The notes under the pieces are model-generated. The model was not told the origin of the DNA. It ran no database searches and was given only the letters and a program-made list of their open reading frames with translations. A program made the translations under genes and the position numbers. Source: Methanothermococcus sp. Ax23 (GTDB lineage Archaea; AGJL01; Methanococci; Methanococcales; Methanococcaceae). From it: a stretch of DNA of 64,000 nucleotides. Within the stretch, counting starts at the first letter, position 1. Each line of letters begins with the position of its first letter. Of the stretch, positions 9,682 to 50,145 are shown piece by piece. Location: contig NZ_CP157522.1 of the NCBI RefSeq assembly GCF_049075655.1, forward strand, positions 1,408,001-1,472,000, in the 5' to 3' direction.

Positions 9682-10296
9682 ATGACATTGAATATAAATC
9701 CAACAAAGATAATCTGCGTAGGTTTAAATTATATAGACCATGCGAAAGAATTGAATATGGAAATTCCAGAAGAGCCAATTATATTCCTAAAACCAACATC
9801 TTCAATAATATATAACAACGATAAAATAATTATGCCGAAACAATCAAATAGGGTGGATTATGAGGTAGAGCTCGCAGTGGTAATTGGTAAAAAATGTAAA
9901 AATGTAAAAAAAGAAGATGCACTAAATTACATTAAGGGATACACCATACTAAACGACATAACAGCAAGAGACCTTCAAGAAAAGGATGGACAATGGACTA
10001 GGGCAAAATCATTTGACACATTCTGCCCAATAGGTCCAAAAATAGTTAAAAACATCGATTCACATAATCTAAACATTCAGTTAAAAGTGAATGGGGAAAT
10101 AAAACAAAAGTCTAACACAAAAAATATGATTTTTACCGTTGAAGAATTGATAGAATTCATATCCTCCATTATGACATTATATCCCGATGATGTAATTTCA
10201 ACGGGAACTCCTCCAGGTGTCGGAAAATTAAATAATGGAGATATTGTTGAGGCAGAAATTGAAAATATAGGAATTTTGAGAAATTATGTAGTCTGA
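9682..10296 (+). CDS. Fumarylacetoacetate hydrolase family protein
   Basis: CVGLNYIDH, DYEVEL, NDITARD, KSFDTFCP, TGTPPGVG. Confidence 0.93.
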   Translation: MTLNINPTKIICVGLNYIDHAKELNMEIPEEPIIFLKPTSSIIYNNDKIIMPKQSNRVDYEVELAVVIGKKCKNVKKEDALNYIKGYTILNDITARDLQEKDGQWTRAKSFDTFCPIGPKIVKNIDSHNLNIQLKVNGEIKQKSNTKNMIFTVEELIEFISSIMTLYPDDVISTGTPPGVGKLNNGDIVEAEIENIGILRNYVV

Positions 10297-10380
10297 CCCA
10301 CTCCAACGAATAAATTCGTTGGGTTCATTTGTGGAGTTTAACCTTACAATAGTGGCCAAGCCCCTGCCCTTACTCATTAA
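10293..10380 (-). mobile_element. Isolated right-end fragment of family-1 IS200/IS605-type MITE
   Basis: Reverse strand GGGCTTGGCCACT...GAACCCAACGAATTTATTCGTTGGAGTGGGTCAG matches right ends at 10684, 15541, 49328; inner boundary approximate. Confidence 0.8.
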
Positions 10381-10401
10381 TGTATTAAATAATTTATTTA
10401 C

Positions 10402-10684
10402 GATAAACCGCCGAGAAAGCCAACGACTTTAGTCGTTGGATGAAAGGCGCACATTATATAATCGTAAATAGTAAAATATAAATATGTGAATTCCCATAGT
10501 AAGTAATGCTGCCAGTCCAAGTTCTAATGGGTAGGGTTAGTGAAAACTCTATCGCTGGTAGTGTTTGGAGATTCAAAAGGTAGCCCTGAACCCATTAATG
10601 GGTAGGGGTAGTGGGCTTGGCCACCCTTGTAGGGTTAAACCCTGCTAAAAGAACCCCACGACTTCAGTCGTGGGAGTAGGTCAG
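10402..10684 (+). mobile_element. Family-1 non-autonomous IS200/IS605 derivative (copy A, 283 bp)
   Basis: TTAC|GATAAACCGCCGAGAAAG + subterminal hairpin; right end GAAC + hairpin + GGTCAG; no ORF; homologous to 15541-15915 and 49011-49328. Confidence 0.88.
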
Positions 10685-10968
10685 AATATCCTTTTGAATT
10701 ATCGTTATTTTCCACAGTTTTTAGAATATCCTCCCTACTAACATAATCATGCCAAACCATCGGAGTTCATCAGTAATATATCACCATTAGTTAAATCCCA
10801 TTCGTAATCATCTACTTTAAATTCATCCATGCCTCTTTTAAAATTCTTTTATCTCTTCAATTGATAATTTTCATTGTATTTTTCCGTTATAATGTTATTT
10901 AGAGTACCTATTGCCATTTCTAATGTAACTTCTCCCGAATTATGCCCTCCAACACCATATGCAACTGC

Positions 10969-11274
10969 CGTTTAAAACTGTTTAGTTTTTTGTGAGTATT
11001 TGTGAGTGTATGGGAGCATTTAGTTTTCGAAATGTTTATATAGTATTTTCATGCATAGTTTATAGTGTCAATCTAATCAACCCCAAGACTTTCCTAAACC
11101 TCTTTTAAACATGTTAAAACATCCAACAAATTGTCGAATTGATGGGTGGAGCTGGGGTCCCCACGACAGGGGAGGAGACCGATGACATGCTCCCAATGAA
11201 CCCAGAGGGATATAAGGTTGATGACGCCCAAGTCCAATGTGGGCATTTACTCACCAACGCTCACATTGGACAGA
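10969..11274 (+). mobile_element. Family-2 306-bp non-autonomous element, probably IS607-derived (copy 1)
   Basis: Homologous to 32108-32413; no terminal IR or TSD; GTGAG-type repeats at ~10-bp spacing at the left end and inverted at the right end; C-run junctions. Confidence 0.8.
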
Positions 11275-15493: not shown

Positions 15494-15540
15494 AATAAAA
15501 TTCACCATAAGATAAGATATAATAATATGATAAAAAGAGT

Positions 15541-15915
15541 CTGACCTACTCCAACGAGTGAACTCGTTGGGTTCTCGCTTACGGTAGTAAGCGAGCAACG
15601 AAATCATGAAGTGATTTCGTCTAATTTTAGTAGGGTTTAACCCTACACGGGTGGCCAAACCCACTACCCCTATCCCCGTTTAGGAGATTCAGGGCTACCT
15701 TTTGAACTTCCAAACACTACCAGCGGTAGAGTTTTCGATAACCCTACCCATAGATACTTGGACTGGTAGCGTTACTTACTACTAATCTTCACATATTTAT
15801 ATTTTACTACTTACTAGCCGATATAATGTCCGCCTCTCATCCAATCTCGTAAGAGATTTTACAAAACTATGTTTTGTATAACGATTAAAATCGTTGGCTT
15901 TCTCGGCGGTTTATC
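15541..15915 (-). mobile_element. Family-1 IS200/IS605 derivative (copy B, 375 bp, with extra hairpin inserts)
   Basis: Reverse complement runs TTAC|GATAAACC...GTAGGTCAG; inserts at ~15574-15623 and ~15843-15879. Confidence 0.88.
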
Positions 15916-15941
15916 GTAAATTGCACTATTTTATAATTTTA

Positions 15942-16255: not shown

Positions 16256-17745
16256 CTAATGTCGGCGGAAAGACCCCTTCCGTCTTAAAAACCTACGGTT
16301 TTTAAAATCACCGAACGAAGTGAGGTGAGCTACAAAAATCGCTAGATTTTTGTTTAATCTCCTCGCTACGCTCGAAGATAAGGGCGGGGATGAGAGCCGA
16401 CAGAAAAATACAAATATCATAATCTATAATATTATATATATAATATAATTGGTGATATAATGTATCTTACTCAAAAAAATCACTTACGAGGTGATAAAAA
16501 AACATACAAAATATTAAAAATATTAACGAGATTATCAAAAAATCTATATAATTACACATTATACACAGTTAGACAGTATTTTGAATTAAATAATCAATTT
16601 CTAAATTATGAAAGTGCATATCATCACATAAAAGAAAATGAAAATTATAAATTATTGCCATCACAAGTGGCACAACAAACAATGAAAATAGTAGATAGAA
16701 GTTTCAAATCATTCTTCAGATTAATACAAGAAAGACAAAAAGGAAATTACAACAGACCAATAAAAATGCCTTATTACTTACCAAAAAATGGTTATTTCGT
16801 GATAATATTTCCAAAAAATATGTTCAAAATCATTAATAATAAAATAAGATTATCATTAGGTAGAAACTTCAAGAAAGAATGTGGAATTCAATATTTAGAA
16901 TTCCAACTTCCTAAAAACATTATTGGAAAGAAAATTAAAGAAGTAAGAATAATCCCAAAATATAATGGTTTATGGTTTGAGATTGAGTATGTTTATGAAG
17001 TTGAATCAATTGATTTGAAATTAGATAAAAATAATTACTTATCAATTGATTTAGGATTGGATAATTTTGCTACTTGTTTCTCAACCACCAGTAGGACTCC
17101 CTTCATTATTGAAGGTCGAGATATTAAATCATTCAACTGCTGGTGGAATAAAAGAAAAGCAGAGTTGCAATCAATCTATGATAAACAAGGAATTAAGTTT
17201 GGTAAAAAAATGACTTACTTACTGAATAAAAGAAAAAATGTAATAAACAATTTTATGAACCAATCAGTAAATTATATTATTAAATATTGTATCAAAAATA
17301 ATATTGGTAGGGTAGTAATTGGTGAATTGAAGGAAATAAAACAAAACATAAATCTTGGTAAGAATAACAATAGGAATTTTGTTTTAATTCCTTATGGATT
17401 ATTCAAACAAAAATTGCAATCAAAATGTAAATTATTTGGTATTGATTATATTGAAGTTGATGAGGCTTACACTTCAAAATGTGATGCATTGGCATTAGAA
17501 CCAATTAAAAAACATAAAAAATATTTAGGTAATAGAATTAAAAGAGGATTATTTCAATCATCAATTGGCAAATTAATCAATGCTGATGTTAATGGTGCTA
17601 TTAATATACTACGAAAGATAGCTGGGGATTCCCTTGTTAAAGGGATACTCAGTAATGGGCTCGTGAATAGTCCTGTAAGGGTGAGAGTTGTATAACTCGA
17701 TGACATACCTTACGAAGCCCCTCCCATAAGGGAGGAGTAATTCAC
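16256..17745 (+). mobile_element. tnpB-only IS200/IS605-family element (IS1341 type)
   Basis: Follows TTTAT; left and right subterminal hairpins; ends TTCAC; joining the flanks restores nadA ...GTT AAA TAA. Confidence 0.9.
16460..17695 (+). CDS. tnpB: RNA-guided endonuclease TnpB
   Basis: SKNLYN, SIDLG (RuvC-I), EAYTSKC, INADVNGAINI (RuvC-III). Confidence 0.93.
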   Translation: MYLTQKNHLRGDKKTYKILKILTRLSKNLYNYTLYTVRQYFELNNQFLNYESAYHHIKENENYKLLPSQVAQQTMKIVDRSFKSFFRLIQERQKGNYNRPIKMPYYLPKNGYFVIIFPKNMFKIINNKIRLSLGRNFKKECGIQYLEFQLPKNIIGKKIKEVRIIPKYNGLWFEIEYVYEVESIDLKLDKNNYLSIDLGLDNFATCFSTTSRTPFIIEGRDIKSFNCWWNKRKAELQSIYDKQGIKFGKKMTYLLNKRKNVINNFMNQSVNYIIKYCIKNNIGRVVIGELKEIKQNINLGKNNNRNFVLIPYGLFKQKLQSKCKLFGIDYIEVDEAYTSKCDALALEPIKKHKKYLGNRIKRGLFQSSIGKLINADVNGAINILRKIAGDSLVKGILSNGLVNSPVRVRVV

Positions 17746-41070: not shown

Positions 41071-41128
41071 GGTGGATGATGACCGGAGTAGCTTCTGATT
41101 TATGATGATAGATGGGCGAGCTGACACC
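41071..41128 (+). ncRNA. C/D-box methylation guide sRNA
   Basis: GGTG-gATGATGA-12nt-CTGA-ttt-ATGATGA-12nt-CTGA-CACC; upstream TATA run, downstream T-tract. Confidence 0.92.
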
Positions 41129-48918: not shown

Positions 48919-49010
48919 TATATCACCTTTTTTAGATTTTAGCAAAAAATATTAAAAATATTATTAAATACGCAAAATACAAGTATGATATTATAATATA
49001 TAACAATTAC

Positions 49011-49328
49011 GATAAACCGCCGAGAAAGCCAACGATTTTAATCGTTGGATGAGAGGCGGACATTATATCGGCTAGTAAGTAGTAAAATATAAATATGAGA
49101 AGATTAATAGTAAGTAACGCTACCAGTCCAAGTTCTAATGGGTAGGGTTAGTGAAAACTCTACCGCTGGTAGTGGTTGGTATCGTGGTTTGTTTTGATAG
49201 AGTAATCTTAGTGATACAGCGTAGCCCTGAATCTCCTAAACGGGGATAGGGGTAGTGGGCTTGGCCACCCATGTAGGGTTAAACCCTGCTAAAAGAACCC
49301 AACGAGTTCACTCGTTGGAGTAGGTCAG
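49011..49328 (+). mobile_element. Family-1 IS200/IS605 derivative (copy C, 318 bp)
   Basis: TTAC|GATAAACC...GTAGGTCAG; central segment ~49175-49222 differs from copies A and B. Confidence 0.88.
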
Positions 49329-49361
49329 AATATGGTGAATAGGTATAAAATATTTATTGAA

Positions 49362-49757
49362 TTATTCCTGCAATTCAAAATAATTCTTCTGCTTAACAAC
49401 TATTATAGGGATGCCCATATCAATAAGCCTTCTTTTTAAATCCTTGTCATTTGTGCATACAACGATTTTATTGCCCTTATCCTTTTGGTATTTTGCATAG
49501 TTTATTATTATCTCATCGGCATACTTTCCAATATTGTAATCATCTGTTTTATATTTTTTAATTAAGGATAATAATAGATTTATTGAAAATTTCTCCTTAC
49601 CTTTTAATTGGGTTTTAAGTTTTTCCAATTCTTCCCTTATGCAATTGAGTATTATAACTTCATAATTATTTAATATTCTGTCGAGCTCATAATCTATATT
49701 TATATTATGTTTAATGGCATATATTAAAAAATTTGTATCTGGTATTACTATTATCAT
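49362..49757 (-). CDS. PIN-domain protein (Fcf1/VapC-like)
   Basis: PDTNFL, EEL, YAD, CTNDKDL. Confidence 0.88.
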   Translation of the reverse strand: MIIVIPDTNFLIYAIKHNINIDYELDRILNNYEVIILNCIREELEKLKTQLKGKEKFSINLLLSLIKKYKTDDYNIGKYADEIIINYAKYQKDKGNKIVVCTNDKDLKRRLIDMGIPIIVVKQKNYFELQE

Positions 49758-49765
49758 TTTATCAC

Positions 49766-50145
49766 GACTCCTTCGGCAGGAAGCCAACGGCTCCGCAACG
49801 AAGTTGCGACCTAAAACCTTCGGTTTTAAGTTTTCCTCACTTTCGTTCGGAAATGCTATAAAAATCCGAAGGATTTTTATTCAATTAGCCGTTGGAGGAT
49901 GCCGAAAAATTTATATGTTGTATAAACTATATATTGTAATAAACCCTAAGGCACGAAGCTCGGTAGAGTGGATACGGTTGGAAGGGCACATATTAAATGT
50001 GATATTTATAGGGCTGTTGTCAGCCAGCCTAATGTCCTCCGCCCTTATTATTGAGGGAGTTGGATTGAATAAATTCCTTCGGAATTTATAGCTCTCCGCT
50101 TCGCTACGAAGGGCAAGCCAACGACTTTAGTCGTTGGTAGCTGAC
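49766..50145 (+). mobile_element. Family-3 non-autonomous IS200/IS605 derivative (380 bp)
   Basis: TCAC|GACTCC...GAAG+hairpin; right end CAAG+hairpin+GCTGAC; removal gives rad50 TAA-GTGAT-AAA-ATG PIN. Confidence 0.82.

Follow-up and report, generated by a model that had tools for sequence, protein, structure and literature searches.

The 64,000-nt stretch of DNA analysed here (the window) comes from Methanothermococcus sp. Ax23 (GCF_049075655.1, contig NZ_CP157522.1, positions 1,408,001-1,472,000 of the forward strand), a thermophilic methanogenic archaeon with a genome of 1.67 Mb in two contigs at 32% G+C. At 10402-10684 it holds a gene-less mini-element of the IS605 type, for which a sequence-only reading had proposed a promoter-like motif, the scaffold of an omega-RNA of the kind loaded by the nuclease TnpB, and membership of a dispersed guide-RNA library. 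Three copies lie where that reading had placed them, as found both by reading of the sequence and by a genome-wide scan for the element ends. All three are intergenic and without an open reading frame (ORF) of 80 aa or more, and they differ in length because of three inserted modules, A, B and C, of 37, 30 and 50 nt. The features are as follows, with coordinates given as window positions; positions in the genome at large carry the prefix G000:C1.

10402-10684, forward strand: mini-element copy 1, at 283 bp the shortest form, lacking modules A, B and C.
10398-10401, forward strand: TTAC target site of copy 1, read directly, and its putative TnpB transposon-adjacent motif (TAM).
10402-10459, forward strand: left end of copy 1, AAAG and then hairpin CCAACGACTTTAGTCGTTGG within a CCGCC/GGCG stem, common to the tnpB elements.
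10473-10484, forward strand: TATA-like box AAAATATAAATA, with its core TATAAATA at 10477-10484.
10508-10562, forward strand: H1, a 5' hairpin in two tiers, with a homologous hairpin within the ORF of the cognate tnpB.
10580-10684, forward strand: omega-RNA-type scaffold of 105 nt, made up of P1/P2, P3, P4 and P5 (the right-end hairpin) and ending in TCAG.
10618-10622, forward strand: 5' half of the pseudoknot, UGGCC, in the P3 loop (alignment columns 42-46, which pair with 120-124).
10651-10674, forward strand: GAAC and the right-end hairpin CCCACGAC-TTCA-GTCGTGGG.
10679-10683, forward strand: GGUCA, the 3' half of the pseudoknot, which overlaps with the cleavage site TCAG.
10685-10700, forward strand: predicted 16-nt guide of copy 1, its 3' flank according to the TnpB rule.
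~10293-10382, reverse strand: degenerate solo right-end remnant abutting copy 1, 80% identical to element positions 192-283 (56.8 bits).
15541-15915, reverse strand: mini-element copy 2, 375 bp; its left-end hairpin holds module A, and module C stands ahead of GAAC.
15916-15919, reverse strand: TTAC target of copy 2, with the predicted guide at 15525-15540, also on the reverse strand.
49011-49328, forward strand: mini-element copy 3, 318 bp; module B lies in the linker between H1 and scaffold.
49007-49010, forward strand: TTAC target of copy 3, with the predicted guide at 49329-49344.

The short motifs quoted in the sequence-only reading (TTAC, the AAAG before the left hairpin, the TATA-like motif, TGGCC, the GAAC before the right hairpin, GGTCA and the terminal TCAG) are all present at the positions listed. 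Its hairpin variants likewise all exist, save that the third terminal hairpin, CCAACGAATTTATTCGTTGG, is that of the right-end remnant on the reverse strand and not of a full copy. Compared with the tnpB elements, the order of pieces in the mini-elements is left end, a short A+T-rich stretch with the box, a 43-nt H1 piece and finally a stretch of 104-108 nt. The H1 piece shares 90-95% identity with a hairpin that lies within the tnpB ORF, ~630 nt into the full element. The final stretch corresponds to the 3' end of tnpB, with its stop codon within CCCTGCTAA, together with the right end. On this comparison the mini-element is a multiply deleted tnpB element, and the alignment of its last stretch to the tnpB 3' coding end and right end upholds the proposal that a right-end RNA scaffold has been kept. 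Judged by their sequence, the window copies are of the type of palindrome-associated transposable elements (PATEs) and miniature inverted-repeat transposable elements, and arose when a tnpB-only (IS1341-group) element in this genome underwent internal deletion.

A whole-genome scan for both end words returned 39 left and 41 right ends, 37 of which pair into elements: 27 gene-less mini-elements (283-405 bp), nine elements carrying tnpB (1381-1568 bp) and one mini-element split by ~1 kb of unrelated insert. This is a family of copies far beyond chance. Module A, within the left-end hairpin, is present in 21 of the 27 mini-elements, module B, in the linker, in five, and module C, directly before the right-end guide word, in 18. 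All 27, and the tnpB elements as well, have subterminal hairpins rather than terminal inverted repeats at both ends, laid out as TTAC, the boundary and ...GAGAAAG before the hairpin on the left, and as AGAAC, hairpin and AGTAGGTCAG up to the boundary on the right. TTAC stands immediately 5' of the left end in each of the 37 paired elements. In IS608 of Helicobacter pylori, guide words and cleavage sites pair as AAAG with TTAC and GAAT with TCAA. The elements studied here share with IS608 the target TTAC and the AAAG before the left hairpin, whereas at the right end GAAC/TCAG takes the place of GAAT/TCAA, so that the last base of the guide and the last base of the cleavage site change together. 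The combinations AAAG/TTAC and GAAC/TCAG recur in all aligned copies, except for two in which TGAAC replaces AGAAC. A further difference is that IS608 carries tnpA and tnpB and the mini-elements neither. The mode of insertion can be read from copy 3, the site of which is empty in a congener (G016): there the flanks are contiguous (...GAATTAC/AATATGATGA..., flank identity 87-88%), compared with ...CAATTAC/(318 bp)/AATATGGTGA... in strain Ax23. As the empty site is simply TTAC plus the right flank, insertion was precise, 3' of TTAC and without target duplication. To the extent that sequences can establish a mechanism, insertion 3' of TTAC by a single-strand, TnpA-type route is established, and the earlier assignment of the copies to non-autonomous IS200/IS605 derivatives stands on the 37 TTAC sites and the empty site.

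For the 3' part of copy 1 extended by 20 nt of flank (10495-10704, 210 nt) the folding energy is -80.5 kcal/mol, compared with -57.4 +/- 4.5 kcal/mol for its shuffles (z = -5.2; none out of 200 as stable). Covariation was assessed on a MAFFT alignment of 28 distinct scaffolds from 12 genomes, ten being from the mini-elements and tnpB elements of this genome and 18 from the 11 others, with two relatives that carry a module inside P2 excluded. It was scored against a hand-drawn structure comprising P1/P2, P3, P4, P5 and the TGGCC/GGTCA pseudoknot. Paired states fill 94.0% of 923 cells, as against 37.6-50.2% with partners slid by 1-3 columns, and the covariation score is 0.367 (at most 0.118 when slid), which was reached by none of 500 shuffles; such figures express consistency with the structure rather than probabilities. 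Changes on both sides are seen in 18 of the 35 scaffold pairs, in 7 of the 10 pairs of P1/P2, which lies outside the DNA end hairpin, and in 7 of the 8 pairs of the right-end hairpin. In the pseudoknot four pairs are near-invariant and the fifth occurs as G-C (9 scaffolds), A-U (8), C-G (7) or unpaired (4). P3 pairs less well (81%), because MAFFT shifts one of its variants by a column. G-U pairs are frequent and conserved, with GU at pair 4:33 in 25 and at pair 44:122 in 26 of the 28 scaffolds, which fits a structure read on the top strand. This strand is sense for tnpB and is at the same time the one handled by TnpA. The five helices and the pseudoknot of the scaffold thus covary across three genera of the class, in agreement with the earlier proposal of covariation outside the DNA end hairpins and of TGGCC/GGTCA pairing. 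In H1, for which a model-fitted alignment was used, the two tiers show changes on both sides in 7 of 10 and 5 of 9 pairs. H1 covaries also where it lies within tnpB ORFs (GGTATCAAG/CTTGATACC in this genome, GGAATCGAG/CTCGATTCC in the sister-genus genome G021), some of the changes being synonymous. A further pairing, between the internal loop of H1 (UCCAAG) and the P3 loop (CUUGG), was considered and rejected, the relatives' UCCACG and UUUGGCGG not preserving it. Diversity among the 27 mini-elements is highest in the linker (0.237), and amounts to 0.056 in H1, 0.072 in the scaffold and 0.065 in the right end. The modules, like the inserts found in relatives, lie in loops and junctions (H1 loop, P2 loop, linker, P4/P5 junction) and never in stems.

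In its dimensions the scaffold resembles the omega-RNA of ISDra2 from Deinococcus radiodurans, which according to the available text of PMC10097598 has a 116-nt core scaffold of four stems with a pseudoknot of nt -5 to -3, a tetraloop hairpin ~20 nt ahead of the guide, and a dispensable 5' region. The corresponding values for the mini-elements are ~105 nt and nt -6 to -2, with a tetraloop hairpin ~20 nt before the boundary. The two differ in that there is no detectable sequence similarity, in the TAM (TTGAT for ISDra2, presumably TTAC here) and in the 5' part, which in ISDra2 is ordinary 3' coding RNA of tnpB and in the mini-elements is H1, joined by deletion.

Relatives were sought in two ways. 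Whole-element BLAST gave no full-length copy in 22 other genomes of the family. A covariance model built from eight copies of this genome and one relative, searched against 40 genomes of the class, found contiguous units of H1 and scaffold (190-250 nt, 86-136 bits) in 14 genomes and in three of five genera. Inspection of 13 such relatives revealed one and the same order of parts, consisting of TTAC (TTTACA in one), a left end with AAG and hairpin, a G-rich box, a TATA box, H1, the scaffold, the right hairpin and an end in GTCAT. In copy 1, 23 nt separate the end of the core TATAAATA from the first G of H1. The relatives' box is TTTATATA or one mismatch removed from it, and stands 23 nt before that G in 10 of the 13 (range 23-28). 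It is this conserved position across genera, in the 13 relatives as in the copies of strain Ax23, that bears out the promoter-like motif of the sequence-only reading. Archaeal TATA boxes have such a spacing of ~23 nt to the start site, and an RNA made from the box would therefore have its 5' end at the base of H1. Upstream of TATAAATA, the purine-rich AGTAAA would fit a transcription factor B recognition element (BRE).

These results bear on a first alternative, in which the mini-elements are inert deletion derivatives that keep the scaffold through its linkage to the right end and make no functional RNA. TnpA-type ends need only subterminal hairpins and guide tetranucleotides. What is kept here comprises a further ~150 nt (H1 and P1-P4), with compensatory changes across three genera, and a TATA-type box at a fixed distance of 23 nt from H1, and independent inserts avoid the stems, all of which speaks against inertness. 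For inertness it can be said that deletion derivatives of IS200/IS605 elements are common, as is also background in the available text of the Meers et al. preprint, that the expression contigs described below are ambiguous, that the family could be a fossil, tnpA being missing from the genome, and that mini-elements persist in two genomes (G022 and G024) without a close TnpB. On balance we consider this alternative unlikely.

A cognate tnpB elsewhere in the genome had been presupposed and is indeed there. Two of the nine tnpB elements, at genome positions 431440-432820 and 1300979-1302447, have an intact ORF (404 and 420 aa, counted from the first ATG). Its product scores 87.8 bits with Pfam PF07282 and 75 bits with PF01385, and also matches solved TnpB/Cas12f chains (best E 1.2e-17). 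In the translation, nuclease and zinc-ribbon motifs can be seen: DLG, GEL and NADxN, which with the help of the alignment to the solved chains we take to be the RuvC triad, and two CxxC pairs. The search for tnpA and tnpB genes with these ends was thus successful as regards tnpB, with nine elements, and gave no tnpA in this genome: no match to the Y1 transposase family PF01797 was found, and tblastn with the TnpA of a relative returned only a 23-aa C-terminal vestige (E 0.009) adjoining one tnpB gene. An autonomous element with tnpA and tnpB and the same type of right end is present in G021, of a sister genus. The tnpB gene beside the vestige belongs to a related element at G000:C1:946082-947430, outside the window, with an open frame of 426 aa, the H1 variant GGTATTGAG/CTCAATACC and a right end scoring 81 bits by covariance model; the vestige, the sole one in the genome, is just upstream of it, and the element adjoins a mini-element at 948051. 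In the window, a 411-aa ORF at 16460-17695 (forward strand), 545 bp from copy 2, matches PF07282 with 46.7 bits at 17393-17608 and represents a different tnpB family, of which another copy lies at G000:C1:586051. As it has no match to the RNA model, it is probably not the cognate nuclease.

The ratio of 27 mini-elements to two intact tnpB genes, at which their RNAs would compete for TnpB, lends itself to a second alternative, namely that an RNA is made and acts as a decoy or regulator titrating TnpB or TnpA, or as a small RNA recruited by the host. H1, being common to the tnpB mRNA, would suit a protein-binding or regulatory module, and in Halobacterium growth improved upon overexpression of a PATE-derived RNA and of a sense-overlapping-transcript RNA (sotRNA), for which titration of TnpA was proposed (PMC4615843, in the part available). 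The scaffold, however, keeps every element of a guide-competent omega-RNA to the last nucleotide, including the covarying pseudoknot; the exact TCAG boundary would be unneeded by a decoy, and no host target is apparent. An RNA of this kind strikes us as quite improbable.

The 37 different 3' flanks amount to 37 potential guides, and the sequence-only reading had proposed a dispersed library, which as an explanation would mean that TnpB is steered to other loci for defence or gene control. Within this genome, none of the 37 has another TTAC-adjacent 16-mer at one mismatch or less. Two have a site at 2 mismatches, 20 have only A+T-rich sites at 2 or 3 mismatches, and 17 have none at up to 3. The guide of copy 1 is unique in the genome, with no TTAC-adjacent match at 2 mismatches or less. 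Each guide is the flank of its own element, fixed by the landing site, and the three window copies are all intergenic. Given that no guide has a target at one mismatch or less, a library aimed at other loci is rejected, and we hold this explanation to be extremely improbable.

As for expression, the public runs found were metatranscriptomes with only a small share of the organism, the contigs of which show neither RNA ends nor strand. Contigs of RNA library X1 cover 10395-10437 and 10512-10689, and the neighbouring genes (9800-10360 and 10718-11176) have no X1 cover. The same excess over the element is seen in X2, probably a DNA library, and in X8. A multi-copy repeat explains the excess equally well, and the contig pattern therefore supports neither expression nor its absence.

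Taken together, we consider it fairly probable that the mini-elements are standalone omega-RNA elements with their own 3' flank as guide, used in trans by TnpB for retention and homing. The box would drive an RNA that starts with the first G of H1, or with a neighbouring nucleotide, and reads through the scaffold into the 3' flank, which would give a TnpB omega-RNA with a guide from the element's own flank. TnpB from the few intact elements would load the RNAs of the mini-elements in trans and cut TTAC plus flank wherever the element is lacking, either at an excision joint or in an uninvaded copy of the genome, and recombinational repair from an occupied copy would restore or spread the mini-element. 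The TnpB mechanism behind these steps is that of the Meers et al. preprint, as far as its available text goes. On this reading the mini-elements are hitch-hikers on TnpB homing and not a guide library of the host.

Several points weigh against the standalone omega-RNA explanation. Transcription, the RNA ends and TnpB binding are predictions, and the RNA-library contigs are ambiguous and compatible with multi-copy DNA. The box is weakened to ACATAAATA in five of the 27 copies, and seven of the nine cognate tnpB copies are frame-broken by a shared 47-nt insert. The scaffold structure was drawn from the same sequences that were scored and the H1 alignment was fitted to the model, both of which lean towards structure, and this, with the relatedness of the sequences, limits the covariation figures to the reading given above. 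In full-length elements P1-P4 overlap tnpB coding sequence, and part of the conservation there could be at the protein level; the top strand is moreover handled by TnpA as single-stranded DNA, so that a role of some helices at the DNA level is possible. With no tnpA, excision joints do not arise in the present strain, and any activity today would be confined to sites at which genome copies differ. Methanococcales are polyploid. Of five relatives checked, G022 and G024 have mini-elements and no TnpB homologue close enough to reach E <=1e-20 with the query used. Finally, in a permissive Rfam scan covering six loci, the scores of three relatives against sot0042 (RF02656), the sense-overlapping transcript of the 3' end of Halobacterium IS1341-type tnpB, are low (34.9-39.6 bits, E 2.5e-7 to 6e-6, gathering score 88), and a copy from this genome (L089) gave no match at E <=0.01. 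The scaffolds of the three relatives do align to sot0042 helix by helix, which counts in favour of the omega-RNA explanation, but with scores below the gathering score this is resemblance and not membership. H1 and the promoter box of the mini-elements are absent from the Rfam model.

Standalone omega-RNAs working in trans are not a new concept. They are described in PMC10691335, the Meers et al. preprint states that PATEs "often encode omega-RNAs" that need TnpB from other IS elements in trans, and a transcribed PATE-derived RNA in an archaeon is on record in PMC4615843, all as read in the available parts of these sources, and the novelty that the sequence-only reading saw in a conserved RNA used in trans is accordingly already in print. 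In Halobacterium, the available text of PMC4615843 reports sotRNAs at the 3' ends of tnpB, a PATE-derived RNA (VNG_R0052 of Halobacterium salinarum), a right-end tetraloop hairpin in a gene-less PATE, and a right-end tetraloop in HgcC. The likeness to the mini-elements lies, within that text, in RNAs from the tnpB 3' end or right end together with a transcribed gene-less PATE. As far as the parts available of these papers show, the mini-elements are like the bacterial standalone omega-RNAs and PATEs in being protein-less and housed in the same genome as effector loci, and would be like them in being mobilised and in needing TnpB or IscB in trans. They are unlike the bacterial standalone omega-RNAs in their archaeal host, in the TATA/BRE-type box 23 nt before the RNA, in the lack of tnpA, in the extra 5' hairpin from the interior of tnpB and in a design conserved across the class. 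In the literature searched, this class-wide design of TATA box, H1 and scaffold, the sharing of H1 between the tnpB ORF and the RNA of the mini-elements, the parallel to HgcC set out below and the ratio of 27 : 2 : 0 for mini-elements, intact tnpB and tnpA appear undescribed. Some further details are new, among them nested double-hairpin inserts of 47-50 nt and the absence of tnpA.

HgcC (Rfam RF00062) was found by its G+C content in Methanocaldococcus jannaschii, and Klein et al. are said to have seen it on Northern blots in 2002. Against the HgcC model the copies of this genome score 24.5-29.6 bits and one relative 32 bits, with a gathering score of 50. In the class-wide search, true HgcC was found in none of 12 genomes of the same genus and has its loci in two other genera. 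Four of these were inspected (L125, L126, L129 and L130, of G027, G023, G029 and G022). In three of them a box TTTTTATATA or a near variant precedes the RNA by ~23 nt, and in the fourth the distance is greater; the left end follows TCAC in three, and the right hairpin with ...GGTCAG is present in all four. The Rfam model extends ~13 nt into the flank. HgcC is thus of the same build as the mini-elements, with a different scaffold, TCAC as target word and other loci, and it appears, on comparison of the sequences, to be the RNA of another gene-less IS605-type mini-element. In the literature searched, the only link between HgcC and tnpB right ends was that in the available part of the 2015 paper PMC4615843.

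Module C, the frame-breaking insert of seven tnpB copies and a second, in-frame insert in three tnpB copies are all double-hairpin units of 47-50 nt (beginning T[TC]A[GA][GA][CT]GAAA..., with two perfect hairpins). The genome holds 68 of these, compared with 4-9 in each of five shuffled genomes, at 43 distinct sites that are mostly preceded by AA. Examples are module C of copy 2 (window 15594-15643, reverse strand) and units at G000:C1:130889, 1125815 and 38501. They occur also in the H1 and P2 loops of relatives, alone, and, by BLAST, in other genera of the family. In appearance they are very small inserts, either mobile or templated, of which to our knowledge no description exists. The 47-nt insert is identical and at the same site in all seven tnpB copies carrying it (elements at G000:C1 130477, 1124975, 1278852, 1504254, 1498246, 1074446 and 893023). 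Downstream of it, the 318-335 codons of the seven interrupted genes have an open frame, a synonymous divergence (dS) of up to 0.33 and a nonsynonymous to synonymous ratio (dN/dS) of 0.12-0.26. Late entry into already diverged copies by homing or short-patch conversion would explain this pattern, as would continued selection on the interrupted genes or recombination with intact tnpB copies. An archaeal bulge-helix-bulge intron was considered and rejected, the ends of the insert showing, by eye, no 4-bp helix flanked by 3-nt bulges. Two other features of the window may be mentioned. Another dispersed repeat, at 49762-50092, recurs elsewhere in the genome at least four times (1587545, 590904, 1266152 and 165224), with 90-91% identity over ~180-305 bp, overlaps a 125-aa ORF (49714-50091) and in part resembles a double-hairpin unit. 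A C/D-box sRNA, sR2 (RF01139), lies at 41072-41126 on the forward strand (55.2 bits, gathering score 42); no other Rfam family exceeds its threshold in the window.

A wider and rather doubtful combination of these observations would have class-wide, promoter-driven mini-elements that parasitise TnpB, a gene drive that runs without tnpA, H1 as a TnpB module, and double-hairpin inserts that home. If it were true, the RNAs of mini-elements would outnumber the nuclease genes by more than 10:1, and TnpB would, in these polyploid methanogens, be a within-cell gene drive for gene-less DNA. H1 could then be a second, unnoticed module for recognition by TnpB or for regulation, common to mRNA and guide RNA, and the 47-50-nt inserts might be a separate tiny mobile element homing into tnpB and into RNA loops.

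In practical terms, the mini-elements offer a scaffold of thermophilic origin that is by nature reduced to ~105 nt, together with a putative defined promoter and TTAC as the presumed TAM. If the RNA is real, the HgcC-type G+C islands, a long-known orphan RNA family in hyperthermophilic methanogens, and the haloarchaeal sotRNAs and PATE RNAs would come under one design of left end, TATA box, scaffold and flank guide. A genome with 27 gene-less elements, two intact nuclease genes and no transposase would then be a natural case of guide-RNA hitch-hiking, and would provide a clean system in which to ask whether TnpB homing alone maintains or spreads non-autonomous DNA.

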